Under the pieces are notes generated by a model. The model did not search any database and had not been told where the DNA came from. It saw only the letters and a list, made by a program, of their open reading frames with translations. Positions 2,681 to 58,912 of a DNA stretch of 64,000 nucleotides are shown one piece after another. The stretch lies in NCBI GenBank assembly GCA_934096605.1, contig CAKOMI010000001.1, positions 11,776 through 75,775 of the forward strand, written 5' to 3'. Position numbers and translations under genes: made by a program. Positions within the stretch are counted from its first letter, which is position 1, and each line of letters begins with the position of its first letter. The DNA is from an uncultured Bacilli bacterium. GTDB taxonomy: Bacteria > Bacillota_I > Bacilli_A > RF39 > UBA660.

Positions 2681-5600
2681 ATGAATAGGAAAAGGACATT
2701 GTTGATAGTAATAGTATTTTTATTGGCTGTTAGTGTAATAGGTGCTTCATATGCCTATTTTGCAGCGACCACAAGTAATAAAGGTAATGATGAAATAACA
2801 GAAATAACTACGGAAGAATTAGGAAGTATTAAGTGGGAAGGTACTAAGGTTTATGAAAGTGGTGATTCCTTACCTGGTGAAATAGGAATTCAGACTTTTA
2901 AAGTATCTAAAAATAGTGATAATGGAAAAGGCATTTATGAAATAGACTTAGAAGGAATTATTGATGAAGCATTTAATGAAGACGTTTTGATAAGTTTATA
3001 TAAGACTACTGAACCTGATAAAAATTATGTTAAAGTAACAGAAGGTGAAAGTACAATTACAGGTGATGATGATACCAAAATGTATTATAAAGAGGATAAG
3101 TTACAAGCAGTAGGAACACCAGAGTTAGTCTATGGACCAAGAGCTTTAGAAACAAAAGATCCAATCATTTTGTATCAAGCTGACTTTGATAATACTAATT
3201 TTCCCGAAACAACATTTTATTTAGTATATGAGTATTTAAATAAAGATAATCAAGATGCAGAGCAAGGTAAAAGTTTTAGTGGTACTATAAATGTAAGATT
3301 AATACTTGAAAAAATAATAGGCGAAGAAAGTGATATCGATATTACATATACCTCTAATAGAAATGATTATGTAAATACAGATGAAACACTTACTATAACA
3401 GCTACAAGTGAAAAATATAATATAGCACGTTATAGTTTTGATAATATTATCTATACACCAGTAGATAATCCAAGTAAAACAGTAACAATAACTAAAACAT
3501 ATACTGAAGAAAAAGATAATATCATTTATTTTAAAGATGACGTTGGTAATACTAAAAGTAAAACACTAGATTTATTCTTAGATAAAACTGGACCTAGTAT
3601 TACTGCTAAAACAACTTTGGAATGGGATAAAACTAATACGATAAGTATTACTTTAGAAGATGAGAAATCTGGGTTAGCTGGATATGCTTTAACAGAGACT
3701 GAAACAGACCCTAGCGAATGGACAAGCATTACTGGAAAAAGTACAACTATAGCAAAAGACGTTACAAGTAATAAAAAATATTATGTATATGCTAAAGATG
3801 TTTTAGGTAATATTAGTCATAAAGACGTTGAGGTAAGTCATGTTGATGAAACTGCACCAGTAATTAATGAGATAAATGAGCAGGAAAATTATGGTGCCAC
3901 TAGTGTGATTTCTGTTAGTGTTAAAGATAATGAAACTGGTATAGTAGGTTATGCCTTTACAACTACAAATGAAGAACCGACTGAGTGGACAAGTGTTGAT
4001 AATGTTATAACTGAAGAAAAATATACGTATGAAGCTTCTAGTAATGGAACAATTTATTTTTGGGTTAAGGATAGAGTTGGTAATATTACTAGTAAACCAA
4101 TAAATGTTACAAAGGTTGATACAACAGCTCCAACTATTACATTGAGTTTAAGTGATGAATTAACTTGGACCTCTTCTAAAACATTAACAATGAATTTTAG
4201 CGATGATGAATCGGGACTTTTGGGATATAAAGTGACTCGTGATGATTCTGAGCCAACTGAATGGTTGAGTATAACTGGTTTTAAGATAACTAAGACTGAA
4301 ACAATTATCGGAAATGGCTTATATTATATATGGGTAAAAGATAAGGCGGGATTAGTTACTTGTGTAACTAAATTTGTGTCATACGCTGATTCAGAAAAGC
4401 CAGTTGCTAGTATGAAATTAACGTCAACTAGTGACTCTATAACTATTGATGCTAGTTCTTCTATTGATACTGAAAGTGGAATAGTGTCATATGAATATAG
4501 TTTAGATGACATTCATTATTATTATTCTATGAATCCAATATACACTTTTACAGATTTAGCAATAGGTGAATATACAGTTTATTTGAAAGTTCGTGATAAA
4601 ACTGGTAATGAAGGTTTTAGTAAAATGAATGTTGGTGTTTATCAAACATTTACAAATGAGCTTAAAACTCTTGCAAGTACAGATACAACAAATTTAATGG
4701 CTGATGATTATGAAAATTTAAGATATGTTGGTGATAACCCTAGCAATTACGTAAAAATAGGGGATAGTACGCTTGGTTTTGATTTGTATGAATTTTATTA
4801 TAATGGTGAAAAACAAGGAAATGAATTAATGTATTCGGAGGAATGTAACCAATTACTTAGTGGGTACATGGACATGATGGATTATAATGCTACATGTGAA
4901 CTAGCACATTCTTATAATGAACCAATTTTGTGGCGGGTTATTGGAGTTATAAAAGACGTAGATGATGGTAATGGTAATAAAAGTGATCGTGTTAAATTGA
5001 TTAGACAATTTCCAATTGGCAATTATTCATGGGATACTAGTTTGAGTGCCGTAAATGGTGGCTATGGTGTTAATGAATGGAGTTTAGCTGATATAATGAA
5101 ACTATTAAATCCTGGCTATGAAAATAATAAAGATAAAGAGCGATACAATACTGAAGTTACCGTTAATAATAGCTTGTTTTGGAATAAAGAAAGTGGATTA
5201 TGTTTTACCTATTCTAATAATACTGTTGGTACTAGTTCTGATGGTGGTAGTATGTGCGATTTTAAACAAAATGGGTTGTCTGATGAATTAAAAAGTATGA
5301 TTGATGCTGCTGTATGGAATACAGGTGCTATTACAAATTTGAGTAGTTTGACAAGCAGTTTTTATGAACAAGAAAGAAGCACAAGTAATGGTAAAATTTG
5401 TACTAGTGGTAACTATTGTAATGATACAATCGGAAGAACTTCTAGCTGGACTGGTAAAGTTGGTTTAATGTATCCAAGTGACTATGGCTATGCCATAGGA
5501 GGAAGTAGTAGAGATAAATGCTTAAAATCAGTTACATTAGATAAATGGAAATCAAATAATGATTGTAGTAATGGTAACTGGCTGCTTAATGTTAGTGAAG

Positions 5601-5794
5601 AAGGAGCAACCATGACACCTGGTGCCGCGTCTAATTATGCTACAAATGTTTATTCTATTAGTACTAGTGGTTATGCATATTCAGGCTATGCTTATTATAA
5701 ACACGCTATAAGTCCAGTAGTCTATTTAAAGACTAATGTTAAAGTTACTGGGGGAGATGGTTCAATAGACAATCCCTTTACTTTAGAAAATTGA
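2681..5794 (+). CDS. large secreted/surface protein, paralog A: N-terminal signal anchor, Ig-like repeats, conserved Cys-containing C-terminal domain
   Basis: An ATG with a GGAAAGAGG RBS is followed by K/R-rich residues and a hydrophobic segment. That segment ends SYAYFAA. Four to five repeats of about 95 aa carry D-x-T-A/G-P-x-I, SGL/I-x-GY and EWTS motifs. The last 380 aa or so are homologous to the C-termini of the ORFs at 27968, 29507 and 57095. The stop is TGA. Confidence 0.8.
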   Translation: MNRKRTLLIVIVFLLAVSVIGASYAYFAATTSNKGNDEITEITTEELGSIKWEGTKVYESGDSLPGEIGIQTFKVSKNSDNGKGIYEIDLEGIIDEAFNEDVLISLYKTTEPDKNYVKVTEGESTITGDDDTKMYYKEDKLQAVGTPELVYGPRALETKDPIILYQADFDNTNFPETTFYLVYEYLNKDNQDAEQGKSFSGTINVRLILEKIIGEESDIDITYTSNRNDYVNTDETLTITATSEKYNIARYSFDNIIYTPVDNPSKTVTITKTYTEEKDNIIYFKDDVGNTKSKTLDLFLDKTGPSITAKTTLEWDKTNTISITLEDEKSGLAGYALTETETDPSEWTSITGKSTTIAKDVTSNKKYYVYAKDVLGNISHKDVEVSHVDETAPVINEINEQENYGATSVISVSVKDNETGIVGYAFTTTNEEPTEWTSVDNVITEEKYTYEASSNGTIYFWVKDRVGNITSKPINVTKVDTTAPTITLSLSDELTWTSSKTLTMNFSDDESGLLGYKVTRDDSEPTEWLSITGFKITKTETIIGNGLYYIWVKDKAGLVTCVTKFVSYADSEKPVASMKLTSTSDSITIDASSSIDTESGIVSYEYSLDDIHYYYSMNPIYTFTDLAIGEYTVYLKVRDKTGNEGFSKMNVGVYQTFTNELKTLASTDTTNLMADDYENLRYVGDNPSNYVKIGDSTLGFDLYEFYYNGEKQGNELMYSEECNQLLSGYMDMMDYNATCELAHSYNEPILWRVIGVIKDVDDGNGNKSDRVKLIRQFPIGNYSWDTSLSAVNGGYGVNEWSLADIMKLLNPGYENNKDKERYNTEVTVNNSLFWNKESGLCFTYSNNTVGTSSDGGSMCDFKQNGLSDELKSMIDAAVWNTGAITNLSSLTSSFYEQERSTSNGKICTSGNYCNDTIGRTSSWTGKVGLMYPSDYGYAIGGSSRDKCLKSVTLDKWKSNNDCSNGNWLLNVSEEGATMTPGAASNYATNVYSISTSGYAYSGYAYYKHAISPVVYLKTNVKVTGGDGSIDNPFTLEN

Positions 5795-5850: not shown

Positions 5851-6300
5851 ATGGGTGATACGATGAATAAAGATGAATATCAAAAAATGGTTAAAGAATT
5901 TACACCTAAAGAAAATAAGATTAAAAAAGCTTTTATTTCTTTTTTAGTGGGTGGTTCTTTAGGTTTTGCAAGTGAGGTTGTAGTGAATATTTTAGTTAAC
6001 TCGTTTGGGATGGAAATTAGTGAAGCATATGTTTATTTATGTGTTTTATTGATCTTAATAGCTAGCTTTTTAACAGCTTTAGGTTTTTTTGATAACTTAG
6101 TTAGTAAAGTTGGGGCGGGGTTATTTTTGCCTACTACAGGTTTTGCCCATTCAATAACCTCTTCGGCATTGGATTATAAAAAAGATGGCATGATTACTGG
6201 TCTTGGATCTAGCTTTTTTAAATTAGCTGGAAGTGTTTTATTGTATGGTATTTTAGGTGGATTTTTCTTTGCGATATTAGGGGTGATCATTTATGGCTAG
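5851..6300 (+). CDS. spoVAC: stage V sporulation protein AC (SpoVAC/SpoVAEB family)
   Basis: There is strong similarity to the SpoVAC pattern (FLVGG...GAGxxxPxTGFAxxxxSxAL, a 4-TM protein of about 150 aa). An alternative start at ATG 5863 follows a GGGTGA RBS. Confidence 0.85.
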   Translation: MGDTMNKDEYQKMVKEFTPKENKIKKAFISFLVGGSLGFASEVVVNILVNSFGMEISEAYVYLCVLLILIASFLTALGFFDNLVSKVGAGLFLPTTGFAHSITSSALDYKKDGMITGLGSSFFKLAGSVLLYGILGGFFFAILGVIIYG

Positions 6301-7273
6301 TAAAAAATTAAATAATATTTTTATAAAAGATGCGTTTTCAGTAGCAGGTCCTGTTGAAAGAAAAGGTTCGATTAAGAACTATGACTTGGAGATGGATGAT
6401 TATTATTATAAAGAAAAAACTTTTGAACAAGCAGAAATTAAAATGCAAAGAGTTGTTATTGATAATGTTTTACAAAAGAATCATTTATTAAATAAGGATA
6501 TTGATGTTTTAGTAAGTGGTGATTTATCAAATCAAATAAGTGTTTCTTGTTATGCAGCAAGTCATTATAAAATACCTTTTTTTGGCGTTTATTCAGCTTG
6601 TGCATCGTTTGTAGAATCTTTAATTGTAGCTAGTGAGTTAATTGAAAATAAACGAAATGCTTATGCTATATGTGTTACTAGTTCTCATAATTTAAATGCA
6701 GAAAAGCAGTTTAGGTATCCAATAGAATATGGGGCTCCTAAACCACTTACGACAACTTTTACAGCAACGGGAGCAGTGGCAACATGCTTATCTAAAGAAA
6801 AAACAAATGTTAAAGTTGAGAGTTACACTATGGGTGAGGTCATAGATAAGGGTATTAAAGATGCTTCTTTTATGGGAGCGGTTATGGCCCCTGCAGCGGC
6901 CCATGTACTTGTTAAACACTTAGAAGAAATGAAAAGAAATGTTGATTATTATGACTTGATTTTATCAGGTGATTTGGGTTGTGTAGGAGCATCTATATTA
7001 AAGGAATATTTAAAAAGAGCTTATAATATAAAAATGAAAAAGTATTTAGATAGTGGATGTGAATTATATTTAAAAAGCCAGGAAGAAACTTTTTCAGGAG
7101 CAAGTGGACCTGTCGCTTTACCGCTTTACTTATTTAATAAAATTTTAAAAGAAAAAAAATATAGTAAGATATTAATTATTGGTACGGGTTCTTTACATAA
7201 CCCGACGATCGTTAATCAAAAGATGAGTATACCAGCGGTTGCACATGCTATTTCTTTGGAGGTGACAAAATGA
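6293..7273 (+). CDS. spoVAD: stage V sporulation protein AD (thiolase-like fold)
   Basis: SpoVAD signature blocks are present: SSHNxNAEKQFRYPxEYG, MAPAAA and DYYDLILSGDLG. It overlaps the upstream gene, consistent with operon structure. Confidence 0.9.
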   Translation: MASKKLNNIFIKDAFSVAGPVERKGSIKNYDLEMDDYYYKEKTFEQAEIKMQRVVIDNVLQKNHLLNKDIDVLVSGDLSNQISVSCYAASHYKIPFFGVYSACASFVESLIVASELIENKRNAYAICVTSSHNLNAEKQFRYPIEYGAPKPLTTTFTATGAVATCLSKEKTNVKVESYTMGEVIDKGIKDASFMGAVMAPAAAHVLVKHLEEMKRNVDYYDLILSGDLGCVGASILKEYLKRAYNIKMKKYLDSGCELYLKSQEETFSGASGPVALPLYLFNKILKEKKYSKILIIGTGSLHNPTIVNQKMSIPAVAHAISLEVTK

Positions 7274-10385: not shown

Positions 10386-13295
10386 ATGCGAAATCCATTA
10401 AATGTTTGTACTGATTATTCTTTAATGCAAAGCTTAATAACTATCCCTAGACTTATGGATGCTCTATCTAAAACAAATTCCTATGTATGTGGGATATGCG
10501 ATGATAATTTATATGGGGCGATGGAATTTTTTTTAGCGTGTAAAAGTCATAATATCAAACCACTTATAGGCTTAAAGATAAAACTTAATGATACATACTT
10601 ATATTTATATCCTAAAAATAATATAGGGTATAAAAGACTCTTAAAAATTAATACTTTAAAAGAAGAAAACAATTTAGTATTAAGTGATATATTAAAGGAT
10701 TCTCATGAACTATTAATTGTTGTACCAGTACTTTTTATGAATGCTTATGAAGAGTTTGTTAATCTTGCTAATACATATGTTGCTTATACAAGTGAAATAG
10801 AAAAATACAAAGCTTTAGAGTTTACAAGTAGAGTTATATTTATGCCAGAAATTAATCTTTTTAATAGTAGTGATTCTAGTTATTTAAGACTTTTAAAAGC
10901 AATAGATAATAATACTTTATTTAAAAGTGTATTAGAAGAAGATAATAAGCATCATGCTTGGGATTTTTATACAACCAACACTGAGATAGAAGAAGAAATA
11001 AAGAGTTTTGCTTCCTTAATTGAACTTGATTTAAGTAGTAAAAAAAGATATATTCCAAGGTATGATGAAAGTATAGATTCTAATAAGTTTTTACAAACGT
11101 TAGCGCTTAAAGGACTTCAAAAAAGACTTAATGGTAAAGAAGTAAGTGCATATCAACAAAGACTTACATATGAACTTAATGTTATTGAAAGTATGGGCTT
11201 TAGTGACTACTTTTTAATCGTATATGACTATGTTTTATTTGCAAAGAAAAATGGCATTTTAGTAGGCCCAGGCCGTGGTAGTGCGGTTGGTAGTTTAGTT
11301 AGTTATTCCATTGGTATTACGGATGTTGACCCTTTAGAGTATAATTTGATTTTTGAAAGATTTTTAAATCCTTCTAGAGTAACGATGCCGGATATTGATA
11401 TAGATTTTGAAGAAACAAGAAGAGGCGAGGTTGTAGAGTACGTAAAAAAAAAATATGGTGAAAAAAATGTTTCTGGTATTATTACCTTTGGAACATTAAA
11501 AAGCAAACTTGTTTTAAGATGTGTATCTAAAGCCTTAGGCCTTGATACTGAGATGGATAAATTCATCAATATGTTTTCACCTAACTTATCTTTAAAGGAT
11601 AATTTAAAAGATGAAAGTATTAGAAATACCCTTAAAGAAAATGAATCATTTTTAGAAGTAGTTAAGTTATCCCTTAAATTAGAAGGTTTAAAAAAGCATA
11701 CATCTAGTCATGCTGCCGGTATTGTTATAGCAAGTGTACCATTAGATGAACTAATACCAGTCCATGTTGATGGAAGTGATTTACTTGCTGGTTTTACAAT
11801 GAATTATTTAGAAGATTTAGGCCTTTTAAAAATGGACTTTTTATCACTTCGTAATTTAACAACTGTAAAAAATATTCTTAGTCTTATAAAAAAAGACTTA
11901 GGCATAACTATTAATTTAAATAAAATACCTTTAGATGATAAAGATACTTATAAGGCTTTTTCACTTGGTAAAACAATGGGTGTTTTTCAATTTGAAAGTG
12001 AAGGCATGAAAAACTTTTTAAAAAAGTTAAAACCAGATAGATTTTCTCTTTTAGTCGCAGCTATTGCTCTATATAGACCAGGACCAATGGAAAATATTGA
12101 TGAATTTATTAGAAGAAAAGAAGGTAAAGTAAGTGTTACATATATCCATAAATCATTAGAGCCAATCTTAAAAGAAACATATGGTATTATTATCTATCAA
12201 GAACAAGTTATGCAAATACTTGTAAGTGTTGGGGGATTTTCTAATGCCGAATCAGATACCATAAGAAGAGCTATGAGTAAAAAGAAAAAAGAAATTATTA
12301 CTAGTTATGCAGAAAAATTTGTGTGTGGGGCTATAAACCAAGGGATAAGTGAAAATATTGCCAAAGAAATATACGCTTTAATACTAAAATTTGCCGGTTA
12401 TGGCTTTAATAAATCACACTCAGTATCTTATTCTTTACTAGGATATCAAATGGCTTATTTAAAAGTACATTACTTTTTATACTTTATTACAAATGCTTTG
12501 AATAACGTTTCTACTAATCCTTTAAAAACTAAAGAATATTTAGCTATGGCTAAACAAAATAAAATTAAAATATATCCGCCAGATATTAATTCAAGTACTG
12601 ATACTTATCAAATAGAAAATGGGGCTATTAGATTACCTCTTTCAGTAATAAAAGGCCTAGGAGCTATGGCAATTAAAGAAATAACAGAAGAAAGAAAGAA
12701 AAAACTTTTTACGGACTTTTTTGATTTTACTAGCAGGGTATATGGCAAAAGCGTTAATAGTAATACTTTAAAACTTTTAATTATATCTTCTGCATTTGAT
12801 ACATTTAAGGTTAATCATAAAACTCTACTTCAAGCTATTCCTGAGGCTATAAACTATGCCACTTTATCTAGTGGGATAGCTGAATCATTACTAGAAAAAC
12901 CAGATTTAATATATCAAGAGGATAGTACTGATAATGAGAAAAGAAATGAAGAAATGGAAGCATTTGGCTTTTATTTAAGTAATCATCCTGCTAGTAAGTA
13001 TATTAGTAAAGATATTTTGAAATTAGAAAATGTAAGTAACTATTTTCTTAAAAATGTGATATGTGTAGTTTTAATAGAAAATATAAGAGTTATTAAAACA
13101 AAAGACAATAAGGATATGGCTTTTCTTCGTGCCAGTGATGAGACTGGTGAATTAGAATTTGTTGTTTTTCCAAATACCATTAAGGAGTTAGAAAATATAA
13201 GTGTATCTTCACTAGCCTTAATAAGAGGTAAAGTATCAAAGCGATTTGATGCTTATCAAATAACAGTTAATAAAATAGAAAAAATACAAAATTAA
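10386..13295 (+). CDS. dnaE: DNA polymerase III alpha subunit, DnaE-type
   Basis: It has a PHP domain and the polymerase core (GRGSAVGSLVSYSIGITDVDPL, PDIDIDF). An ATG at 10386 with a GAGGG RBS is the preferred start. The ORF track instead opens at TTG 10365. Confidence 0.9.
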   Translation: MRNPLNVCTDYSLMQSLITIPRLMDALSKTNSYVCGICDDNLYGAMEFFLACKSHNIKPLIGLKIKLNDTYLYLYPKNNIGYKRLLKINTLKEENNLVLSDILKDSHELLIVVPVLFMNAYEEFVNLANTYVAYTSEIEKYKALEFTSRVIFMPEINLFNSSDSSYLRLLKAIDNNTLFKSVLEEDNKHHAWDFYTTNTEIEEEIKSFASLIELDLSSKKRYIPRYDESIDSNKFLQTLALKGLQKRLNGKEVSAYQQRLTYELNVIESMGFSDYFLIVYDYVLFAKKNGILVGPGRGSAVGSLVSYSIGITDVDPLEYNLIFERFLNPSRVTMPDIDIDFEETRRGEVVEYVKKKYGEKNVSGIITFGTLKSKLVLRCVSKALGLDTEMDKFINMFSPNLSLKDNLKDESIRNTLKENESFLEVVKLSLKLEGLKKHTSSHAAGIVIASVPLDELIPVHVDGSDLLAGFTMNYLEDLGLLKMDFLSLRNLTTVKNILSLIKKDLGITINLNKIPLDDKDTYKAFSLGKTMGVFQFESEGMKNFLKKLKPDRFSLLVAAIALYRPGPMENIDEFIRRKEGKVSVTYIHKSLEPILKETYGIIIYQEQVMQILVSVGGFSNAESDTIRRAMSKKKKEIITSYAEKFVCGAINQGISENIAKEIYALILKFAGYGFNKSHSVSYSLLGYQMAYLKVHYFLYFITNALNNVSTNPLKTKEYLAMAKQNKIKIYPPDINSSTDTYQIENGAIRLPLSVIKGLGAMAIKEITEERKKKLFTDFFDFTSRVYGKSVNSNTLKLLIISSAFDTFKVNHKTLLQAIPEAINYATLSSGIAESLLEKPDLIYQEDSTDNEKRNEEMEAFGFYLSNHPASKYISKDILKLENVSNYFLKNVICVVLIENIRVIKTKDNKDMAFLRASDETGELEFVVFPNTIKELENISVSSLALIRGKVSKRFDAYQITVNKIEKIQN

Positions 13296-27731: not shown

Positions 27732-27858
27732 TTAAGATAAATTTTTTAAAAAAATGTATATAGTAAGTATTTTATTTGTTTTTTGTTTATGCTAAAATTA
27801 AAGTATATTAAAGTAGAAAAGGAGGATGGTTAGCACAAGAATGTGTTAATTAAAGATT

Positions 27859-27897
27859 ATGAGATTAATTAAAAATAGGTTGGGGGGGGGGTTCTAG
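27859..27897 (+). CDS. upstream uORF MRLIKNRLGGGF* terminating just after the G10 tract
   Basis: The ATG at 27859 reads through the G-run as GGG x3 and stops at TAG 27895-97. With G9 it would fuse to the main ORF. Confidence 0.4.
   Translation: MRLIKNRLGGGF
27882..27891 (+). repeat. G10 homopolymer, a putative slipped-strand phase-variation tract
   Basis: Ten consecutive G residues in a genome of roughly 28% GC. They lie between the upstream ATG and the paralog B ORF. Confidence 0.85.
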
Positions 27898-27967
27898 TAA
27901 TAAGGATAAGATAGAACTTCAGGTATTTAGAGAACCTAATAAAAAAAGAAAAATTATATTAATAACT

Positions 27968-29287
27968 GTGTTATTTAGTATGTTAGCATTATCTTGTATG
28001 TACTTATATAAAACATATGCGGTGTTTACAGAAGAGAAACACTTTAATGTAATCAATGGAACTGTTCAAGATCCAGGAGATATTTATTTTGCATATTATG
28101 TAGATAATACAATAACAAGGGAAATGCCTAAGAAAGGAACAGGCTATACATTAGATATCGAAAAAAGCAATTGTACAAATGGAGTAACAGTAGGTTGGAA
28201 TCAAGATAAGTGGACAGCTCTAGTTAACTATGAAAACTATAATGCCACTGATTATACAAGAACAAAATGTAATTTGTATTTTAAACAAGTAACATATTGC
28301 GATTTGCATTCCGAGACAATGGCTTGTCAAATAACAAAGTTGGCAACAACAGAAACTACAAGCTTAGCCATAGATGACTATGGCAATACAAGATATATAG
28401 GAGCAGATCCAAACAACTATGTAAGCGTAGATGGTGATATATGGCGTATCATCGGTGTTATGAAGGACATAGATGATGGTACAGGTAATAAAAGTGACAG
28501 GGTAAAATTAATAAGAGCTGATTCAATAGGTGATTATTCATGGGACACAAGTGAAAGTTCTGTAAACGAAGGATATGGAGTAAACGAATGGAGCCAAGCA
28601 GATTTAATGAAATTATTAAATCCTGGCTATGAAAGCGTGACAGTAGGTGGCTCATTATACTGGAATAATGGAACAGGCACATGCTATAATAACAGAGCTA
28701 ATGTAGCTGCTAGTTGTAATTTCACAAGTATGGGTATCAGAGAAAAATTAAAAACACTAATAAGTGATGTCGTATGGAACACAGGCAGTCAAGGAACAAA
28801 TAATTATCAAAGCACTGGTGGAGGATTAGTAAAACATTTCTATACCTATGAAAGAGGTAATAATACTGGCAAAATTTGTTCAAGCGGCAACTATTGCAAT
28901 GACTTTGTGACAAGAACAACGACATGGACAGGAAAAGTTGGCTTAATGTATCCAAGCGACTATGGCTATGCCACAAGTGGAGAAAGTATAACAAACCGAG
29001 CAACATGTCTGAATACATATTTAAATAACTGGGGTAGCAGTAGTGTAAGTGACTGCAAAAATGGTGATTGGCTATTTAATAGTAGCAGTTCCCAATGGAC
29101 ATTATCGTCAGGTGCTTACTCTTCTGTTGCTGACTTTGTGTTCTTTGTGCATAGTAGTGGAATTATCAATTTTGATTATGCATATGACACTAATGCAGTT
29201 CGTCCTGTTGTTTACCTTTTGTCATCAGTAAAAATAGTATCGGGTGATGGTTCTTCTTCAAATCCATATGTCTTATCTGGCAGCTAG
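27968..29287 (+). CDS. surface protein paralog B with the conserved C-terminal domain; the 5' end may extend to ATG 27859 after a -1 G slip
   Basis: The ORF-track ORF opens at GTG 27968. Upstream in frame, and free of stops back to TAA 27866, lies ...GGSSNKDKIELQVFREPNKKRKIILITV. The C-terminal 320 aa are homologous to the other three paralogs (WRIIGVMKDIDDGTGNKSDRVKLIR, GVNEWSQADLMKLLNPGYE, ICSSGNYCND, TWTGKVGLMYPSDYGYA, VRPVVYL...SGDGSSSNPY). Confidence 0.8.
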   Translation: MLFSMLALSCMYLYKTYAVFTEEKHFNVINGTVQDPGDIYFAYYVDNTITREMPKKGTGYTLDIEKSNCTNGVTVGWNQDKWTALVNYENYNATDYTRTKCNLYFKQVTYCDLHSETMACQITKLATTETTSLAIDDYGNTRYIGADPNNYVSVDGDIWRIIGVMKDIDDGTGNKSDRVKLIRADSIGDYSWDTSESSVNEGYGVNEWSQADLMKLLNPGYESVTVGGSLYWNNGTGTCYNNRANVAASCNFTSMGIREKLKTLISDVVWNTGSQGTNNYQSTGGGLVKHFYTYERGNNTGKICSSGNYCNDFVTRTTTWTGKVGLMYPSDYGYATSGESITNRATCLNTYLNNWGSSSVSDCKNGDWLFNSSSSQWTLSSGAYSSVADFVFFVHSSGIINFDYAYDTNAVRPVVYLLSSVKIVSGDGSSSNPYVLSGS

Positions 29288-29397
29288 TTAAAAAAATAAA
29301 TACATATTTTATTGTTTTAAAAGTTATGTTAAAATACGAAATATAAATAAAGTAGAAAAGGAGGATAGTTAGCACGTGAATGTGTTAATTAAAGATT

Positions 29398-29436
29398 ATG
29401 AGATTAATTAAAAATAGGTTGGGGGGGGGGTTCTAA
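29398..29436 (+). CDS. upstream uORF MRLIKNRLGGGF* (second copy)
   Basis: The ATG at 29398 reads through the G10 tract and stops at TAA 29434-36. Confidence 0.4.
   Translation: MRLIKNRLGGGF
29421..29430 (+). repeat. G10 homopolymer, second putative phase-variation tract
   Basis: Ten consecutive G residues, in the same context as 27882-27891. Confidence 0.85.
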
Positions 29437-29506
29437 TAATAGAGGCGAGATAGAACTTCAGGCTTTTAGAGAACCTAATAAAAAAAGAAAAATTATATTA
29501 GCAACT

Positions 29507-30805
29507 ATGTTGTTTAGTATGTTAGTATTATCTTGTATGTACTTATATAAAACATATGCCGTGTTTACAGAAGAAAAACACTTTAATGTGATAAATGGTG
29601 AGGTGCAAGATCCAGGAGATATCTATTTTGCTTATTATGCAGATAATACAATAACAAGGAGTATGCCTAAGAAAGGAACAGGCTATACTTTAGATACCGA
29701 AAAAAGTAATTGTACTAATGGAGTCATACCAAAATGGGATAATGGCGGTTGGCAATTTATAGGTGATTATAGTGATTATAATGCAACAGATTACACCAGA
29801 ACCAGATGCAATTTGTATTTTAAAAAAATAGATATAACGGCTGTTGATTATATTAAAGAGTTGGCTAAATACGATACAGAAACACTTGCTACAGATGAAG
29901 CTGGAGGTAATGTTAGGTATATAGGAAAATCTCCTGATAATTATGTAAATATTGATGGCGATATATGGCGTATCATTGGCGTTATGAAAGATATAGATGA
30001 TGGTACAGGAAAAAAGAGTGACAGAGTAAAATTAATAAGATCTTCTTCAATAGGAAAATATTCATGGGATAGTAGTGATTCAAAAGTTAATTATGGCAAG
30101 GGTGTTAATGAATGGAGTCAGGCCGATTTAATGAAACTTTTAAATCCTGGGTATGAAAGTGAGTCAGTAGGAGGCTCATTATATTGGAATGGCAAGTCGG
30201 GTACATGTTATAGTGATCAAAAAAATATTACAACAAGTTGTGATTTTACAAGTACAGGCATAAAAGATAAGTTGAAAAGATTAATAGGTAATGTTAATTG
30301 GGGGCTTGGGTCTGTTGATGGAGTAACTTATACATTTGCTAATATTTCTACCATTAAGTCATATGAATTTGAACAAAGTACTAATACGGGTAAAATTTGC
30401 GATGGGACGTATCAAGGAGGTATATACTGTACAGACACAGTAATAAGAACAACAACCTGGACCGGAAAAGTAGGCTTAATGTATCCTTCTGATTATGGTT
30501 ATGCGACAAGTGGTGGTAGTACAATTGATAGAGCAAAATGTTTAAAAGCTGCGATGCATTCTTGGAACAACGATTTGAATTTTTGCTATGAAAATAACTG
30601 GTTATCATGTGGCATTGATGAATTTACTTTAACTCCATCTCCTAGACCTGAATTTGATTATGATATTTTTTCTATTCATAATAAGGTTATTGATAGTTAT
30701 AGTGCGAATGCCTACATAAATGTTCGCCCTGTAGTATATTTAAAACCATCTGTATCTATTCAAAGCGGAGATGGCTCAGAAAATAGTCCTTTTATACTAG
30801 AATAA
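29507..30805 (+). CDS. surface protein paralog C with the conserved C-terminal domain; the 5' end may extend to ATG 29398 after a -1 G slip
   Basis: It has the same architecture as paralog B. The first 70 or so aa are nearly identical to B. The middle region is divergent. The C-terminal domain is conserved. Confidence 0.8.
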   Translation: MLFSMLVLSCMYLYKTYAVFTEEKHFNVINGEVQDPGDIYFAYYADNTITRSMPKKGTGYTLDTEKSNCTNGVIPKWDNGGWQFIGDYSDYNATDYTRTRCNLYFKKIDITAVDYIKELAKYDTETLATDEAGGNVRYIGKSPDNYVNIDGDIWRIIGVMKDIDDGTGKKSDRVKLIRSSSIGKYSWDSSDSKVNYGKGVNEWSQADLMKLLNPGYESESVGGSLYWNGKSGTCYSDQKNITTSCDFTSTGIKDKLKRLIGNVNWGLGSVDGVTYTFANISTIKSYEFEQSTNTGKICDGTYQGGIYCTDTVIRTTTWTGKVGLMYPSDYGYATSGGSTIDRAKCLKAAMHSWNNDLNFCYENNWLSCGIDEFTLTPSPRPEFDYDIFSIHNKVIDSYSANAYINVRPVVYLKPSVSIQSGDGSENSPFILE

Positions 30806-30885: not shown

Positions 30886-30906
30886 AATATAGAAAGGTTT
30901 TTGTAT

Positions 30907-31455
30907 ATGAATAAAAAAGGTTTTGTGTTTATTGAAACTATAATAGTTATATCAATACTTTTAGCATCTTTGATGATTGTGTATTCTTTATATGTTTCAT
31001 CTATTAATAAAGAAAATAAAAGATTAAGATATGATGATCCAGTTAAATTATATCAAACGTTTTATATGAAACAATATTTAAATAGTTTTCGTCTTAATGA
31101 ATTAGAGAAAAATATTACTAATGAAAATCCATATATTAATATATATGGACAAAGTGATTTATTTGGTGGATCTTTTAGTAATGAAAAAAAGTTTTTTGAA
31201 AGAATTACAGATGAACTTAATATTGAAACAATTTTACTTACTACTTACGATGTGTCTTTATTAACTGATTGCAAAGAAAATAGAAATATGCTTTGTACTA
31301 ATAATAATTTAATCGAGTACTTAAATACTTTAGATAATGATGGAAAAAGTGGCTATAGGTTAATTATTGAGTATAAAGAACAGTTGAATGGTAAGAAATG
31401 TGAAAATAAAAAAGATTGTTATTCTTTCTATTCAAATGTATGGGTAGGTGATTAA
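30907..31455 (+). CDS. type IV prepilin-like protein (pilin or pseudopilin)
   Basis: The N-terminus MNKKG|FVFIETIIVISILLASLMIVY is a class III signal with G|F and Glu at +5. The C-terminal part has paired cysteines. Confidence 0.75.
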   Translation: MNKKGFVFIETIIVISILLASLMIVYSLYVSSINKENKRLRYDDPVKLYQTFYMKQYLNSFRLNELEKNITNENPYINIYGQSDLFGGSFSNEKKFFERITDELNIETILLTTYDVSLLTDCKENRNMLCTNNNLIEYLNTLDNDGKSGYRLIIEYKEQLNGKKCENKKDCYSFYSNVWVGD

Positions 31456-32060
31456 TGATGAAAAGTAAGGGATTTACATTAGTAGAAATTATTGTAAGTG
31501 TAGCACTTATTTCTATTGTGTTACTTTTATTATTCCAATTAATGACTGATATGGAGTATGATTCTTTAACTTCTATGTTTGCTAGTGATAATCAGGTGAA
31601 TAGAGCGACTATCATAAAAAGAATTGACAAGGATTTAATGGATTATGGTCTTAAAAGTATACCTAGTATTAACAATATTACTAATGGTAAACAAATTAAG
31701 CTTAGTTTTAGTAATGGTAGTAGTAAAGATATTATTGTAACTTCTAGTACACTTACATATGATGGGGAAAGTTATACAGTTTCTTCTGGTGGTTCTTATG
31801 ATATTAATAATATAAAGATTGTATCTATACCTAGTAATTCAGAGAAACTTTGTTCTTATATGTTAAATATTGATACAAATAACGATGGTGTATGTGATGC
31901 GAACTGTGGAACTAATGAGAGTAATATGACGAAGAAAAATGATAATTATGTATATTGTCCTATTTATCAAGCTATAAAAATAGTTATACCTGTTTTGTTT
32001 AGTGAAGATGATGTGGCACTTGATGATATAGAAATATTTTATATTGGAAAATTAAGTTAG
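31455..32060 (+). CDS. type IV prepilin-like protein (pilin or pseudopilin)
   Basis: The N-terminus MMKSKG|FTLVEIIVSVALISIVLLLLFQLM is a canonical prepilin signal. Cysteines are present in the C-terminal region. Confidence 0.75.
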   Translation: MMKSKGFTLVEIIVSVALISIVLLLLFQLMTDMEYDSLTSMFASDNQVNRATIIKRIDKDLMDYGLKSIPSINNITNGKQIKLSFSNGSSKDIIVTSSTLTYDGESYTVSSGGSYDINNIKIVSIPSNSEKLCSYMLNIDTNNDGVCDANCGTNESNMTKKNDNYVYCPIYQAIKIVIPVLFSEDDVALDDIEIFYIGKLS

Positions 32061-34864: not shown

Positions 34865-34894
34865 TTACTCATTCACAAAGCCATTGCGAGGAAG

Positions 34895-35165
34895 AGTAAA
34901 AAAATATAAAGCATTTTAGAGAACTCTGTTAGGTGAAAAAGAGGATGTAAGTATTTTTTGAACATGGCCCTCAAGGCGAATGACTGAAATACTCTTAGTA
35001 GGTCATTACGGGGATGCCCGTTATAGCAGATACCTATAACTATGCAAAAGACATAAGTAGGTTAGTGAGTTTAATACAGTAATGTATTAATAAATAAGAG
35101 TGGTAACGTGAATATATTCACCTCTTAGAGACTTAGTGTTTCTAAGAGGTTTTTTGTTTAAAGAA
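34895..35165 (+). promoter_or_regulatory. T-box riboswitch leader (probable Met specifier) controlling metG
   Basis: The T-box-like sequence AATAAGAGTGGTAACGTG overlaps an antiterminator. The terminator CCTCTTAGAGA...TCTAAGAGG plus T6 lies just before the RBS. Confidence 0.55.
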
Positions 35166-35178
35166 AGAGGGAGATAAT

Positions 35179-36810
35179 ATGAATATTATAATTGGAATTA
35201 GTTGGCCTTTTGCAAATGGGGAACTCCATATAGGTCATGCAGCAAGTAGTTTACCAGGAGATGTTATAGCTAGATACCATAGACTTAAAGGAGATAAAGT
35301 TATATTAGTATCTGGTACTGATTGTCATGGTACACCGACTGAAGTAAAAGCATTGCAAGAAAATAAAAGTCCAAAAGAAATAGTAGATGATTGCCATGTT
35401 TCATTTTCTAAAGATTTTAAAGACTTTGGTATAAGTTTTGACTTATACAATAGAACAGATGATCCTTATCATAAAGAGTTTGTTCGGGAACAATTTGTTA
35501 AATACTACAACAATGGTTATTTAGAAGAAAAGGAGGAAGAACAATTATATTGTGATCACTGCAAATTATTTTTAACAGATCGTTACATTATTGGTATTTG
35601 TCCTAAATGTGGATCTGAAATAAAAGGTGATGAATGTGAAAAATGTGGAAGTTTACTTACAATCGATGAAGTAAAAGAAACTAAATGTGCTATATGTGGT
35701 AATAAGGCATCATATAAGAAAAATAGAAATTTATATTTTAAACTTTCAATCTTTCAAGACAATATAAAAGAATTATTAGACTCTAAAAGAAATGATTGGA
35801 GAGAAAATGCTGTTAATTTTACTGAAAGATATCTTAAAGAAGGAATACCAGATAGATGTGCATCTCGTACTTTAAACTATGGTATTGATATTCCAATAGA
35901 TGGATTTAAAGATAAAAAGCTATATGGTTGGTTTGAAAATGTATGGGGATATGTAACTGCTAGTAAAAAATATGCTGAAGAAAATAAATTAAATTGGGAA
36001 GATTTTTGGAAAGGGAATAATAGCAAAATATATTTAGTTCATGCAAAAGATAATATTCCATTTCATACAGTTATATTTCCATCATTATTACTAGCAACCA
36101 ATGATAATTATAGATTGCCTGATAAAATAGTGTCAGATGAATATATAACTATTGAAGGAGAAAAATTATCCAAGAGCAAAGGTAACTATATTACATTAAG
36201 ACATTTATTAGATAATTATCCAGTAGATGCTATTAGATATTATTTTAGTATTTATAATCCTGAAACAAGAGATTTCAATTTCACTTATGAAGGTTTTATC
36301 AATTCTATTAATGGAGAATTACTTGGTAAATGGGGTAACTTTGTTAATAGAACATTGCAATTTATTAATAAATCATTTTATGGTAATTTAAGCAGTAGTA
36401 ATATTGATTCAACAATTGAAGCAAAGTTAAAAGATTTATATATTAATATTGGTAATGATATTGATAATGGAGATACAAAAGAAGGCTTATCAAAAATATT
36501 TGATTTTATAAACTATTCAAATAAGTATTTTGATGAAAATGAACCATGGAAATTAGCTAAAGAAGATGTAATCAAATGTGAAGATATTTTATATAATTGT
36601 TGTAATATTATATTTAATATAAATAATTTACTTAAACCATACTTTGTAGAAACAACAAAAAAGGTAGAAGAATATTTAAATAGCAATATTAGCAGCTGGA
36701 ATTATCAAAAATTAGAAAAGGTTGAATTATCAGAAGAAATAAAACCATTATTTATCAGATATGATAAAAAAGTAATTGTTCAAGAAAGAGAATTTCTAAA
36801 TAAAAATTAA
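35179..36810 (+). CDS. metG: methionyl-tRNA synthetase, short form without the C-terminal tRNA-binding extension
   Basis: It has the class I HIGH motif (ELHIGHAAS), GTDCHG, a CPKC...CEKC zinc knuckle and KLSKSKG (the KMSKS motif). Length is 543 aa. Confidence 0.75.
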   Translation: MNIIIGISWPFANGELHIGHAASSLPGDVIARYHRLKGDKVILVSGTDCHGTPTEVKALQENKSPKEIVDDCHVSFSKDFKDFGISFDLYNRTDDPYHKEFVREQFVKYYNNGYLEEKEEEQLYCDHCKLFLTDRYIIGICPKCGSEIKGDECEKCGSLLTIDEVKETKCAICGNKASYKKNRNLYFKLSIFQDNIKELLDSKRNDWRENAVNFTERYLKEGIPDRCASRTLNYGIDIPIDGFKDKKLYGWFENVWGYVTASKKYAEENKLNWEDFWKGNNSKIYLVHAKDNIPFHTVIFPSLLLATNDNYRLPDKIVSDEYITIEGEKLSKSKGNYITLRHLLDNYPVDAIRYYFSIYNPETRDFNFTYEGFINSINGELLGKWGNFVNRTLQFINKSFYGNLSSSNIDSTIEAKLKDLYINIGNDIDNGDTKEGLSKIFDFINYSNKYFDENEPWKLAKEDVIKCEDILYNCCNIIFNINNLLKPYFVETTKKVEEYLNSNISSWNYQKLEKVELSEEIKPLFIRYDKKVIVQEREFLNKN

Positions 36811-55707: not shown

Positions 55708-56994
55708 TTAAATATCTAGAGTTTCAATAGATTTATTTTCATCAAGTTTTTTGCCATAGATGGCATTTTTAAGTTCTTTTTGTTCTTCACCTAAATCATC
55801 TTCGACGTCAATTACTCTTAAAACTTCCTCAAAACTGGTTAAGCCATTGATAACTTTGATTAAACCATCATCAAGTAAGCTAGTAGTATTGCCACTTTTG
55901 TAGATCAATTCTCTTATTTGTTCTTTTGGAGTGTTATTTACAATAGCGTCTCTGATATCTTGGTTAAGTAGTAAAACCTCATGAAGAGCAATACGTCCTT
56001 TATAACCTTTGTAACATGAATCACAACCAACAGGTTTATATATTTTTTCAATATCCATGCCAAGCGCTTCTTTAAAAACTCTTTTTTCATAAGGAGTTGT
56101 TTCTCTTTCGGAACGACATTTAGGACATAGTTTTTTACATAGCCTTTGGGAGATTATAGCTTCTAGAGCTGAACCTAGTAAGTATCTTTCTACATCCATA
56201 TCAGTAAGTCTTTCAATAGTGGTAAGCGAGTTATTAGTGTGGATTGTTGATAATACTAAGTGACCAGTGATAGAGGCACGAACAGCAATTTTGGCTGTTT
56301 CACTGTCTCTTATCTCACCAATCATGATGATATCAGGGTCTTGTCTTAAGATTGAACGAAGTGCACTAGCAAAAGTAAGACCAATTTCACTCATAACTTG
56401 TACTTGGTTAATACCAGATAGTTTCATTTCAACTGGGTCTTCAACAGTAATAATATTTCTTTCAATTGTATTTAGAGCTTGGAGCATAGCGTAAACAGTA
56501 GTTGATTTACCAGTACCGGTAGCACCAGTAACTAAGATAATACCATTTGGTTTAGCCATTGTTTTTTTGACTTTTTCTAAGTTTTTATCAGAGAAACCCA
56601 AGGATTCTAGTGTACTTAGTGTTGAACTATAATCTAAAAGACGAATAACGACCTTTTCACCATAGACAATTGGTAGGGTAGAAACACGAAGATCTAAGTC
56701 TTTGCCATCAACTTGCATTTTAATCGCGCCGTCTTGCGGAATACGTGATTCAGTGATATTCATACCAGAAATAATTTTAACTCTGGTTACTAAGTTTTTC
56801 TTAACAGCCTCTGGAACAGTTGCATAAAGTATCAATTCACCATCAACTCTAATACGAACATTTAAAATTGTTGGCGTAGGATCAAAGTGAATATCACTTG
56901 CTCTTTTTCTAGCAGCATCAATAAGCATATTATTAACTATATCTACTATAGGTTGATTTTGATAATCATATTCTGTAAACATACTAGTCACCAA
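55708..56994 (-). CDS. type II/IV secretion ATPase (PilB/GspE/ComGA-like)
   Basis: It has the Walker A motif VTGATGTGKSTT, Asp/His boxes and the tetracysteine motif CPKC...CDSC. Confidence 0.85.
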   Translation of the reverse strand: MVTSMFTEYDYQNQPIVDIVNNMLIDAARKRASDIHFDPTPTILNVRIRVDGELILYATVPEAVKKNLVTRVKIISGMNITESRIPQDGAIKMQVDGKDLDLRVSTLPIVYGEKVVIRLLDYSSTLSTLESLGFSDKNLEKVKKTMAKPNGIILVTGATGTGKSTTVYAMLQALNTIERNIITVEDPVEMKLSGINQVQVMSEIGLTFASALRSILRQDPDIIMIGEIRDSETAKIAVRASITGHLVLSTIHTNNSLTTIERLTDMDVERYLLGSALEAIISQRLCKKLCPKCRSERETTPYEKRVFKEALGMDIEKIYKPVGCDSCYKGYKGRIALHEVLLLNQDIRDAIVNNTPKEQIRELIYKSGNTTSLLDDGLIKVINGLTSFEEVLRVIDVEDDLGEEQKELKNAIYGKKLDENKSIETLDI

Positions 56995-57094: not shown

Positions 57095-58912
57095 ATGATG
57101 ACATATATTAGAATAGAGGTATTGGTTATGAATAGTAAGAAAAGTTGGTCAAAAAAAATATTATTAGCTCTTGGCATATTAATAGGGTTAGTAGGCGTAA
57201 GTTATGCTTTATGGCATATAACACTTAGTGGTACAAATAATAATACAATTACAGCCACATGCTTTAATGTGTCTTTTACAGATCAAAATAATATTAGTAT
57301 TGAAAAAGCCTATCCTTTATTAGATGAAGAAGGAAAGAAATTAACACCTTATGAATTTACAATAACTAACAACTGTGATACATACGTTAAATATGATATT
57401 AACTTAGAAATATTAAATAATTCAACATTAACAAATATGGATTACATAAAATTAATGTTAGATGATGAGACACCTGCCTTAGTATCAAGTTATGATGTAA
57501 CAACAAAAACACTTAGTAATGCAAGTACAGCCTATAAAATTAAAATGAGTTATTTAAATGCTAAAGAAAGTAAAACCTATTATTTAAGATTATGGTTAGA
57601 TGAAAATGTTACTGGTGAAACAGAAGGAGTCCAAAATAATACCTTTATTTCTAAGATAACAGTAAACGCAAGTTATGCTGAAAGTGCTCCTGAATATTGT
57701 GAATTAAATCCAAATACAGCTGCATGTCAAATTGAAACATTAGCTGAAACTGACACAACTAATTTAGCAGTAGATGACTATGGCAATACAAGATATATCG
57801 GAGCGAATCCAAATAATTATGTCAGAGTAGAAGGAGAAGAATATACAAGTGATGTTTATTATGGTTATAACGGTTCTGATACTTCTTCTTATAGGGAGTA
57901 TTCTAGTTTAGATAAATGCACTCATTCCAGTACTTATTCTGCTAATTGTACATTAGTACCTAAAGGTACACCAATTTTATGGCGTATTATCGGTACAATG
58001 AAAGATATAGATGATGGTACCGGCAACAAGAGTGACAGATTAAAATTGATAAGAAATGATTCAATAGGCGAGTATTCATGGGACACAAGTGACTCAAGTG
58101 TTAATAGTGGCAATGGTGTCAATGAATGGAGCCAAGCAGATTTAATGAAGCTCTTAAATCCAGGTTATGAAAATGAAGAAATTGGTGGTTCATTATATTG
58201 GAATAATAAAAATGGTACATGCTATTACTCTTCCAATAATAAAACAACAAGTTGTGATTTCACAAATAGAGGCATAAATGGTAAATTGAAGTCATTAATA
58301 GGTAATGCCGTATGGAATACTGGTGCAAATGATGGAACAACGTATACGTATAAAAATATGAATGCTTCAGAATTTTATCAGTTAGAGAGAAGCAAGAATA
58401 TTGGTAAAATTTGCACAAGTGGCGATTATTGCAATGACTCAGTAGAAAGAACAACGACATGGACCGGTTTAGTTGGACTTATGTATTCGAGTGACTATGG
58501 ATATGCGACAAGTGGCGGCAGTACTACAGACAGAGCAACGTGTTTAAATGGTAATCTTAGTCATTGGAGTAAAAATTTTGAGTCTAACACTAATCAACAA
58601 ATTGTTACTGGATTTGAAGATTGTGTAATAAATAATTGGATATTTGATTCGTTTCTGCCACCACAGTGGACTATTTCATCAGCAAATGAGGTGTATAGTA
58701 AGGCAACTCAAGTATTTCTTGTTTGGCAATGTGTTTCCCCAAGTCCTGCAAGTAATGCTAGGCGTAAATATAACATAGATAATGATGGCCTTTCGGAAGA
58801 GACCACTTCTGGTATTGGCGCTGATGTTTTTCCAACTGTATATTTAAAATCATCTGTAAAAATTGCGTCTGGAAGTGGTTCAAAAGAGGACCCATTTGTT
58901 TTAGGAAATTGA
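57095..58912 (+). CDS. surface protein paralog D with the conserved C-terminal domain
   Basis: It has a strong GGAGGAGGG RBS. A basic-TM N-terminus ends VSYALW. A unique N-terminal module of about 190 aa is followed by the C-terminal domain. That domain is near-identical to B at DNA level over DDYGNTRYIG. The stop is TGA. Confidence 0.8.
   Translation: MMTYIRIEVLVMNSKKSWSKKILLALGILIGLVGVSYALWHITLSGTNNNTITATCFNVSFTDQNNISIEKAYPLLDEEGKKLTPYEFTITNNCDTYVKYDINLEILNNSTLTNMDYIKLMLDDETPALVSSYDVTTKTLSNASTAYKIKMSYLNAKESKTYYLRLWLDENVTGETEGVQNNTFISKITVNASYAESAPEYCELNPNTAACQIETLAETDTTNLAVDDYGNTRYIGANPNNYVRVEGEEYTSDVYYGYNGSDTSSYREYSSLDKCTHSSTYSANCTLVPKGTPILWRIIGTMKDIDDGTGNKSDRLKLIRNDSIGEYSWDTSDSSVNSGNGVNEWSQADLMKLLNPGYENEEIGGSLYWNNKNGTCYYSSNNKTTSCDFTNRGINGKLKSLIGNAVWNTGANDGTTYTYKNMNASEFYQLERSKNIGKICTSGDYCNDSVERTTTWTGLVGLMYSSDYGYATSGGSTTDRATCLNGNLSHWSKNFESNTNQQIVTGFEDCVINNWIFDSFLPPQWTISSANEVYSKATQVFLVWQCVSPSPASNARRKYNIDNDGLSEETTSGIGADVFPTVYLKSSVKIASGSGSKEDPFVLGN

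Follow-up and report, generated by a model that had tools for sequence, protein, structure and literature searches.

Predicted lectin-like surface proteins of an uncultured gut Bacilli bacterium as probable targets of poly-G switching at translation

The two genes and their G tracts

Two tandem genes lie on the forward strand of the window, a stretch of 64,000 nucleotides (nt) from an uncultured Bacilli bacterium (assembly GCA_934096605.1, contig CAKOMI010000001.1), and each carries a run of ten G (G10) located 8 codons 3' of an ATG. They are called here copy 1 (27859-29287) and copy 2 (29398-30805), and the subject of this work is the probable role of their G tracts as ON/OFF switches. The features of both genes are compiled in Table 1.

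The window has a GC content of 28.9%, and the two tracts are the only runs of at least eight G in its 64 kb. Expressed as overlapping G8 matches, six are observed against 0.21 expected in shuffled sequences, and none of 100 shuffles reached six. GGG is a minority glycine codon, with 13% of the glycine codons in the window genes.

Translation from the ATG of copy 1 proceeds in the window as ATG AGA TTA ATT AAA AAT AGG TTG GGG GGG GGG TTC TAG, that is MRLIKNRLGGGF*, with its stop at 27895-27897. The large open reading frame (ORF) of copy 1 is in the +1 frame relative to this ATG and has no stop between a TAA at 27866-27868 and its own stop at 29285-29287. Its earliest listed start, GTG 27968, falls within a hydrophobic segment. 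Loss of one G joins the ATG to the 464-codon frame; more generally, the ATG is in frame with a tract of G9 or G12, and the product then begins with MRLIKNRLGGGSSNKDKIELQVFREPNKKRKIILITVLFSMLALSC... The second G10 lies in an identical leader behind ATG 29398, with the same frame offset, and precedes the tandem paralog (29507-30805). Both tracts thus have the form of a translational contingency locus mediated by a simple sequence repeat, namely an uninterrupted homopolymer of 7-8 units or more in the 5' part of the frame, and one unit is enough to toggle between a 12-codon peptide (G10) and proteins of 475 and 468 amino acids (aa) (G9).

These coordinates and frames agree with an initial annotation of the DNA, which had described the tract, the 12-codon frame, the +1 ORF and the stop-free upstream stretch of copy 1. 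That annotation had covered the switch of this gene (its paralog B); the feature is not unique to it, as the neighbouring paralog has the same leader and tract.

Table 1. Features of the two tandem genes in the window
Feature	Position	Strand	Basis
Putative extended -10 element TGCTAAAAT, copy 1	27790..27798	+	Sequence reading; retained as TGTTAAAAT in the paralog
Shine-Dalgarno sequence AAAGGAGG, 33 nt 5' of start codon, copy 1	27818..27825	+	Identical in copy 2
Predicted 11-bp hairpin between Shine-Dalgarno sequence and ATG, copy 1	27827..27852	+	-9.6 kcal/mol, z -5.4
Start codon, copy 1	27859..27861	+	Homologous to starts of P0122, P0039, P0002, L026 (MRL/MRF...GGG...)
12-codon dead-end frame MRLIKNRLGGGF* at G10 (OFF)	27859..27897	+	Sequence
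G10 tract, candidate switch of copy 1; G9 in frame (ON), G10 out of frame (OFF)	27882..27891	+	Sequence and strain comparison
Copy 1 body, 464 codons and stop: predicted cytoplasmic tail, transmembrane anchor, beta domain, C-type-lectin-like ectodomain	27892..29287	+	
Putative extended -10 element TGTTAAAAT, copy 2	29327..29335	+	Paralog alignment
Shine-Dalgarno sequence AAAGGAGG, copy 2	29357..29364	+	Paralog alignment
Predicted leader hairpin, copy 2	29366..29391	+	-9.3 kcal/mol, z -5.1
Start codon, copy 2	29398..29400	+	P0039, P0126, P0129, P0131 (468 aa) begin here at G9
G10 tract, candidate switch of copy 2; G9 ON, G10 OFF	29421..29430	+	Sequence and strain comparison
Copy 2 body, 457 codons and stop; ~60% identical to copy 1 protein	29431..30805	+	Sequence comparison, dN/dS

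Tract length in strains of the same species

Tract lengths were also read in ten more contigs of this species from the human gut. These stem from separate samples and several studies (Hadza, MERR22, ERZ2728...). Only G9 and G10 occur, at both tracts, and all four combinations are present. With copy 1 given first, the lengths are 10/10 in the window, L003, L084 and L085, 10/9 in L001 and L086, 9/10 in L081 and 9/9 in L082. Copy 1 has G9 in L083, a contig that does not cover the tract of copy 2, and copy 2 has G9 in L002 and L087, which do not cover that of copy 1. The 60 nt 5' of each tract are identical in all contigs read, bar 1-3 substitutions near the 5' end; contig L087 begins 46 nt 5' of its tract.

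L081 and the window show no mismatch in 7,429 bp and a single 1-nt gap, at tract 1. L001 and the window show six mismatches in 13,408 bp and a single gap, at tract 2. Over 7.4-13.4 kb, where these near-identical strains differ by 0-6 mismatches, no indel other than that of the tract occurs. This polymorphism supports the slipped-strand ON/OFF switching proposed in the initial annotation; nor is G10 invariant among the contigs, since L081, L082 and L083 have G9 at copy 1. L084, from a different study, is 100% identical to the window over 6,287 bp, G10/G10 included, and the G10 state is thus reproducible and probably not a random error. At copy 2, both G9 and G10 are found on two allele backgrounds that are ~93% identical to each other, which suggests recurrent switching. 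Collectively, the tracts appear from these alignments to be the hypermutable sites of the region, switching independently and recurrently.

Gene calls in public contigs, counted from protein clusters at 90% identity, fall into two forms for each gene. For copy 1, the fused protein of 475 aa (P0122, MRLIKNRLGGGSSNKDKIELQVFREPNKKRK...), exactly the one predicted from the loss of one G, is called in 7 contigs, and the truncated form of 435 aa in 34. For copy 2, the fused protein of 468 aa is called in 15 contigs and the truncated form of 428 aa in 81. Among JGI metagenome contigs, none matched the exact leader followed by G7; the species is represented in ENA/NCBI assemblies.

Start codon and leader

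A search with the hypothetical G9-fused protein retrieved thousands of relatives, and in many of them 96-100% of the query is covered, its N-terminal extension too. In the alignment of their N-termini, Met and a small number of residues come before Gly-Gly-Gly, after which follow a stretch rich in K/R, a transmembrane (TM) helix and the motif FNVINGxVxDPGDIYFAYY, as in P0002 (RRGGGSSNRDNLELQAFREPNKKRK), P0014, P0024 and P0060, and ...GGG... is encoded at the aligned position of the cytoplasmic tail in many full-length homologs. In L026, a relative that is 72% identical and has an in-frame G9, a Shine-Dalgarno (SD) sequence lies 8 nt 5' of the homologous ATG. Together, the homologous N-termini and the SD of L026 argue that ATG 27859 is the ancestral start codon and that the stretch from the tract to GTG 27968 is real coding sequence. 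The initial annotation had noted that this stretch would supply a positively charged n-region and a TM signal anchor once one G is removed, and homologous coding sequence in many relatives agrees with it. The predicted proteins would yield the tryptic peptides IELQVFREPNK (copy 1) and GEIELQAFREPNK (copy 2). Inference of ON/OFF states from the N-termini of database homologs was tried and abandoned as unreliable, since gene callers invent starts at the tract (MLGGG..., MGGG...).

No SD sequence was found before GTG 27968 or ATG 27980; the majority of the window genes have one, GGAGG or GGTGAT, 5-10 nt 5' of the ATG. This absence suggests a true OFF state at G10. An earlier claim that the large ORF has no canonical ribosome-binding site consequently stands for these two internal starts and fails for ATG 27859, which is preceded by AAAGGAGG.

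The distance between this SD and the ATG is unusual, and a stable hairpin is predicted in the gap of both copies. In copy 1, the predicted hairpin leaves 1 + 6 unpaired nt between SD and ATG. It is also predicted in the L085 allele (z -4.4), where the base changes retain pairing (A-U to G-U, G-U to A-U). The hairpin may bring AAAGGAGG close to the ATG and so form a split ribosome-binding site. Phage T4 genes 38 and 25 reportedly have split ribosome-binding sites of this kind, bridged by a hairpin. The leader resembles them in the 33 nt that separate SD and start codon, in the stable hairpin that occupies the gap and in the total of ~7 unpaired nt; it differs in that the hairpin is here a prediction, made in close alleles and paralogs only. 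L026 is unlike the window copies, with normal SD-ATG spacing and no hairpin. Alternatively, the leader could act by re-initiation after a conserved mini-ORF, ATG TGT TAA (27841-27849), which the hairpin contains.

A scan with the -35/-10 promoter consensus did not pick up a promoter in the leader, and the extended -10 elements of Table 1 are assigned by reading of the sequence and by conservation between the paralogs. Rfam has no family matching the leader; its sole match in the window is a T-box (34875-35128), located 5' of a Met-tRNA synthetase gene (35179-36810).

Selection on the genes and nature of the proteins

The ratio of nonsynonymous to synonymous substitution rates (dN/dS) is 0.20 for copy 1 (window versus L085, dS 0.82), 0.25 for copy 2 (window versus the L085 allele) and 0.27 between the paralogs (dS 1.1), with an overall range of 0.20-0.28. 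Such values point to ORFs under purifying selection and not to pseudogenes. In none of the strains compared does a second lesion occur in the ~460 codons.

An AlphaFold2 model built from a 97-sequence alignment is confident, with a predicted local distance difference test (pLDDT) score of 85.9. Besides a TM helix and a small beta domain, it contains a C-terminal domain of ~280 residues; it replaces an earlier model from a 16-sequence alignment (pLDDT 54). The modelled ectodomain has the CTLD (C-type-lectin-like domain) core fold. It resembles the N-terminal domain of the immunoglobulin A (IgA) peptidase of Thomasclavelia ramosa (PDB 9qa6; PMC12237041), and the C-terminal domain of Legionella Lcl (8q4e) and the C-type-lectin-like fold are further comparators. 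The paralogs differ from this group, in which DUF1566 and DUF6273 are also placed, by a sequence identity of 18%, by the absence of any peptidase domain found in their proteins and by the lack of a significant Pfam match. Searches of Pfam/NCBIfam with both proteins gave no match at E 0.01 or better (DUF6273 reached E 0.014 in one of 16 members), and a sequence-profile search of PDB gave none. A membrane-anchored, lectin-like surface protein with its N-terminus inside is well supported.

A type IV pilin or pseudopilin, or a pilus-tip protein, was also considered. This reading was rejected because the N-terminus (...NKKRKIILITVLFSMLALSC...) has no G-F-x-x-x-E prepilin motif and no N_methyl match, and because a pilin-like gene lies within 3 kb of only 6 of 75 family genes. 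It had suggested itself because the paralogs are followed directly by two prepilin-type genes (30901-31455 and 31455-32060) with a GFxxxE motif and weak ComGE/GF-like matches, no terminator being predicted in between. An ATPase of T2SSE/PilB type is encoded elsewhere in the window (55708-56982, reverse strand).

Divergence between the paralogs is uneven. A 5' cassette (27768-28185 versus 29305-29724) that comprises the first ~60 ectodomain codons and, before them, promoter, leader, tract, tail and TM helix is ~89% identical, and the remainder has diverged past detection by blastn (dS ~1.1). Between strains, copy 1 alleles have a dS of 0.82, yet their leaders are nearly identical. Together, these patterns suggest gene conversion of the 5' cassette or strong constraint on it. 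A conserved 5' cassette followed by a diverged remainder is typical of variable surface-protein families. The C-terminal lectin-like module of the paralogs recurs at ~50% identity in two other proteins of the window, of 605 aa (57095-58912) and of 1037 aa with an additional PKD domain (2681-5794). Their genes have no G tract; an A8 run (57151-57158) lies 19 codons into the 605-aa gene.

G tracts in the wider gene family

A scan for the family with one genome per species gave 263 matching stretches, of which 77 loci were kept. All belong to gut metagenome-assembled genomes (MAGs) titled uncultured Tenericutes, Bacilli, Firmicutes or Erysipelotrichaceae, from human, rabbit and mouse, with many paralogs per genome and more than 15 family copies in some. 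G runs were surveyed in the window and in loci L001-L080, 1.07 Mb in total. Runs of at least seven G number 39, all on the strand bearing the family genes; this total includes three G7 runs that have no relation to the family.

Two classes of tract are distinguished. Class A comprises pure G9-G11 tracts at the 5' coding end of relatives that are 35-70% identical (L004, L005, L011 twice, L017, L026, L071 and L077 three times). Their frame errors are one extra G in six (L004, L005, L071 and the three of L077) and one G short in three (both of L011, and L017). In the rabbit-gut MAGs (L077 230, 4124 and 6161; L071 426), the G10 is placed inside TM-helix codons (...MLLGGGYLI...), 27 codons after a start with normal SD in tandem family genes, and a single surplus G puts each of the four out of frame.

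Class B comprises tracts in the promoter spacer, within TTGACx-N19-22-TGnTAtAAT, that range from G7 to G13 with G10 as the modal length. The genes behind them belong to the same family or to a sister family with a shared C-terminal domain (L012 7920, 14165; L016 3617; L025 7128, 9652; L029 7091; L032 7224; L033 7128; L037 7955; L050 7952; L051 7950; L052 3019; L055 7134; L070 6903; L072 1902; L074 13927). The spacers of 19-22 nt, most often 20, exceed the 17-nt optimum. This would mean that the promoter is OFF in nearly all representatives or that ON requires an unusual geometry; the lengths hint at a non-standard ON state or at an effect of G-tract DNA structure.

Among genes with the FNVING...YFAYY motif, 14 of 24 have a tract at most 420 nt upstream. 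The tract is lost or interrupted in some relatives, e.g. P0004, P0058, P0079 and P0096. Retention of a pure G run in a genome of 29% GC, across much divergence and at differing functional positions, argues for selection for mutability. Two observations concern the handling of such genes by software. Gene callers systematically mis-start out-of-phase members inside the TM helix or at the tract (MLGGGLLNK..., MGGGLLNK...; clusters P0001/P0121/P0124/P0125), so that the N-terminus of database entries for this family is often wrong, and contig L019 ends inside a G9 tract (11429-11437) preceded by TTGAC, which is consistent with assembly breaks at poly-G of heterogeneous length.

Proposed mechanism and competing explanations

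With a probability of roughly 85%, both tandem genes are governed by poly-G simple-sequence contingency switches acting at translation. Strand slippage during DNA replication would alter a tract by one G, probably within clones and at a high, reversible rate. The tract lies within the codons of a short cytoplasmic tail. At G9, the ribosome would start at the ATG, pass Gly-Gly-Gly and go on to translate the positively charged n-region, then the TM anchor and the ectodomain, giving the proteins of 475 and 468 aa (ON). At G10, as in the window, translation would stop after 12 codons, the remainder of the gene would be left without a start having its own ribosome-binding site, and probably no protein would be made (OFF). 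Because the tracts appear to switch independently, one population would mix cells with neither, either or both proteins, a classical form of bet-hedging among bacteria. The benefit may be escape from IgA or phages, or variation in adhesion.

Several observations count against a switch. Only G9 and G10, and no G8 or G11, were seen among the contigs read, and the consensus states are mostly OFF (~83% of contigs). These lengths are the consensus of short-read metagenome assemblies and not read-level counts, the contig counts may include redundant assemblies, and a truncated gene call does not reveal which out-of-frame length underlies it. In representative genomes of other species, 9 of 10 class A tracts are out of frame, with L026 alone in frame, and most coding tracts (in this species, and 6 of 10 in the others) are out by exactly one extra G.

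This last point speaks for recoding as the main mode of expression, the strongest of the alternatives and itself improbable. Here, G10 would be the functional resting state, read by a +1 ribosomal slip on GGG GGG GGG or by slippage of RNA polymerase to G9 transcripts, and changes in DNA length would be incidental. GGG is indeed seldom used as a codon here, a G run offers perfect re-pairing, the run resembles an SD sequence, and the family's coding and promoter tracts both have G10 as their commonest length. The mostly OFF consensus states could also fit a system in which recoding plays a part. Frameshifting on a G-string is known from the thymidine kinase of herpes simplex virus. For Mycoplasma agalactiae, discussed below, the authors too raised ribosomal shifting for their G10 (PMC2824730). 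However, the length varies in the DNA itself, as the sole indel between near-identical strains, and no recoding is required for G9 alleles to be in frame. The corrections needed differ in other family members (+1 G in L011 and L017, -1 from G9 in L005), and promoter tracts cannot work by frameshifting. Transcriptional slippage, for its part, is best documented for A/T runs. Recoding may nevertheless add some leakiness to the switch. A programmed +1 frameshift site, prfB-like and invariantly out of frame, was discarded, in-frame G9 alleles being common.

A sequencing or assembly artefact, in which intact genes with a single true length of G9 acquire G10 by homopolymer error, is very unlikely. 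All data do come from short-read metagenome assemblies, poly-G is error-prone, and one contig (L019) ends inside its G9 tract. Yet a single pipeline and study (Hadza, SPAdes contigs) gives both lengths at both tracts in all combinations, from a consensus at 6-32x coverage, and G10/G10 is reproduced exactly in another study over the 6,287 bp of L084. Moreover, the two tracts of one contig differ despite identical context (L001 and L081), which a systematic bias would not give.

Equally hard to credit are decaying pseudogenes, in which most strains would have lost the function of both copies through a frameshift in a G run present by chance: the out-of-frame state of most assemblies fits, but the low dN/dS persists even at dS 0.8-1.1 with no second lesion in 460 codons, the tract is uninterrupted and keeps its position across diverged paralogs and species, and in-frame alleles recur on different backgrounds.

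Relation to known systems

The closest parallels to the proposed contingency switches are found in mycoplasmas. In M. agalactiae 5632, the P48-like gene (MAGa1620) has a G10 at its 5' coding end, and the gene regains its signal peptide and lipobox when one G is deleted; in M. bovis, the tract of P68 ranges over G8-10, with G9 as the ON state; and the spma family has poly-G of up to 13 in its 5' regions (PMC2824730). The likeness extends to low GC, a surface-protein gene whose 5' coding end has G10, a G9 ON state that acts through an export or anchor signal, and a gene family with 5' poly-G. In contrast to mycoplasmas, the organism studied here has peptidoglycan and sporulation genes (PBP, MurG, MurT, FtsQ, SpoVAD). 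Its proteins are predicted to be TM-anchored and lectin-like instead of lipoproteins, and related genes have a tract in the promoter spacer (TTGAC/TATAAT). The evidence also differs, being polymorphism among metagenome assemblies here and cultured strains there.

Poly-G/C contingency loci are well known in Campylobacter jejuni, Helicobacter pylori, Neisseria and Haemophilus. Shared features are a G tract of 8-11 near the 5' end, surface-related genes and, as proposed here, one-G translational ON/OFF at independent loci. Unlike these Gram-negative loci, the present ones belong to a member of the Bacillota (labelled 'Tenericutes'), a non-pathogenic uncultured gut commensal that is much more AT-rich. 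Homopolymer switches in promoter spacers are known from vlp of Mycoplasma hyorhinis and from porA/opc of Neisseria. Class B loci (L012, L025, L029, L032, L033, L050-52, L070, L072...) are similar in having poly-G between -35 and -10. They differ in that the tract is G, not A, and in their long spacers; the tracts of the window copies are coding, not in the promoter.

The initial annotation had considered such loci rarely reported in low-GC Firmicutes, a view that requires correction, as the same geometry has already been described in low-GC Mollicutes (PMC2824730). In the literature searched on phase variation by poly-G, no paper on the gut 'Tenericutes/Bacilli' MAG lineage came up. The mechanism is known; the novelty lies in the organism, in the protein family and in the use of tracts across that family.

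As for the organism, the window encodes a SpoVAD homolog (6293-7273, E 1e-101), a penicillin-binding protein (PBP) with PASTA domains, MurG, MurT and FtsQ. With these genes, a walled and possibly spore-forming member of the Bacillota is plausible, though related MAGs are labelled Tenericutes. The spore-former label given initially is thus plausible through SpoVAD, with the qualification that the closest public genomes are labelled uncultured Tenericutes/Bacilli. One homolog, 52% identical, carries the UniRef label 'Candidatus Ventrenecus'.

Significance for gut commensals

Simple-sequence contingency loci are textbook material for a few Gram-negative pathogens and for mycoplasmas. To our knowledge, they are hardly documented in the abundant uncultured Bacillota that live as gut commensals. 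The switch state can be read from public metagenomes, with about one-sixth of the assemblies ON per gene, and this would permit culture-free tracking of surface ON/OFF states across hosts, diets and IgA status. In databases, the proteins look cytoplasmic or fragmentary because gene callers start within the TM helix (435- and 428-aa entries), and homopolymer-aware annotation would recover the full-length forms. Through its fold, the ectodomain is linked to the N-terminal domain of an IgA peptidase from the gut, and this suggests that it faces the host and binds a ligand.

It is tempting to extend this picture to a lineage-wide 'phasome', of which the two tracts of the window may be a local sample. 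A large lectin-like family in a gut Bacilli clade, related to the N-terminal domain of an IgA peptidase, would have diversified in the manner of Mycoplasma by poly-G, with tracts moved among the 5' coding region, TM-helix codons and the promoter spacer, and with G10 as the preferred resting length. This extension is tentative and stands a little on the doubtful side of even. If it is true, a commensal that is walled and apparently spore-forming would have stochastic surface variation at the core of its strategy for colonisation.

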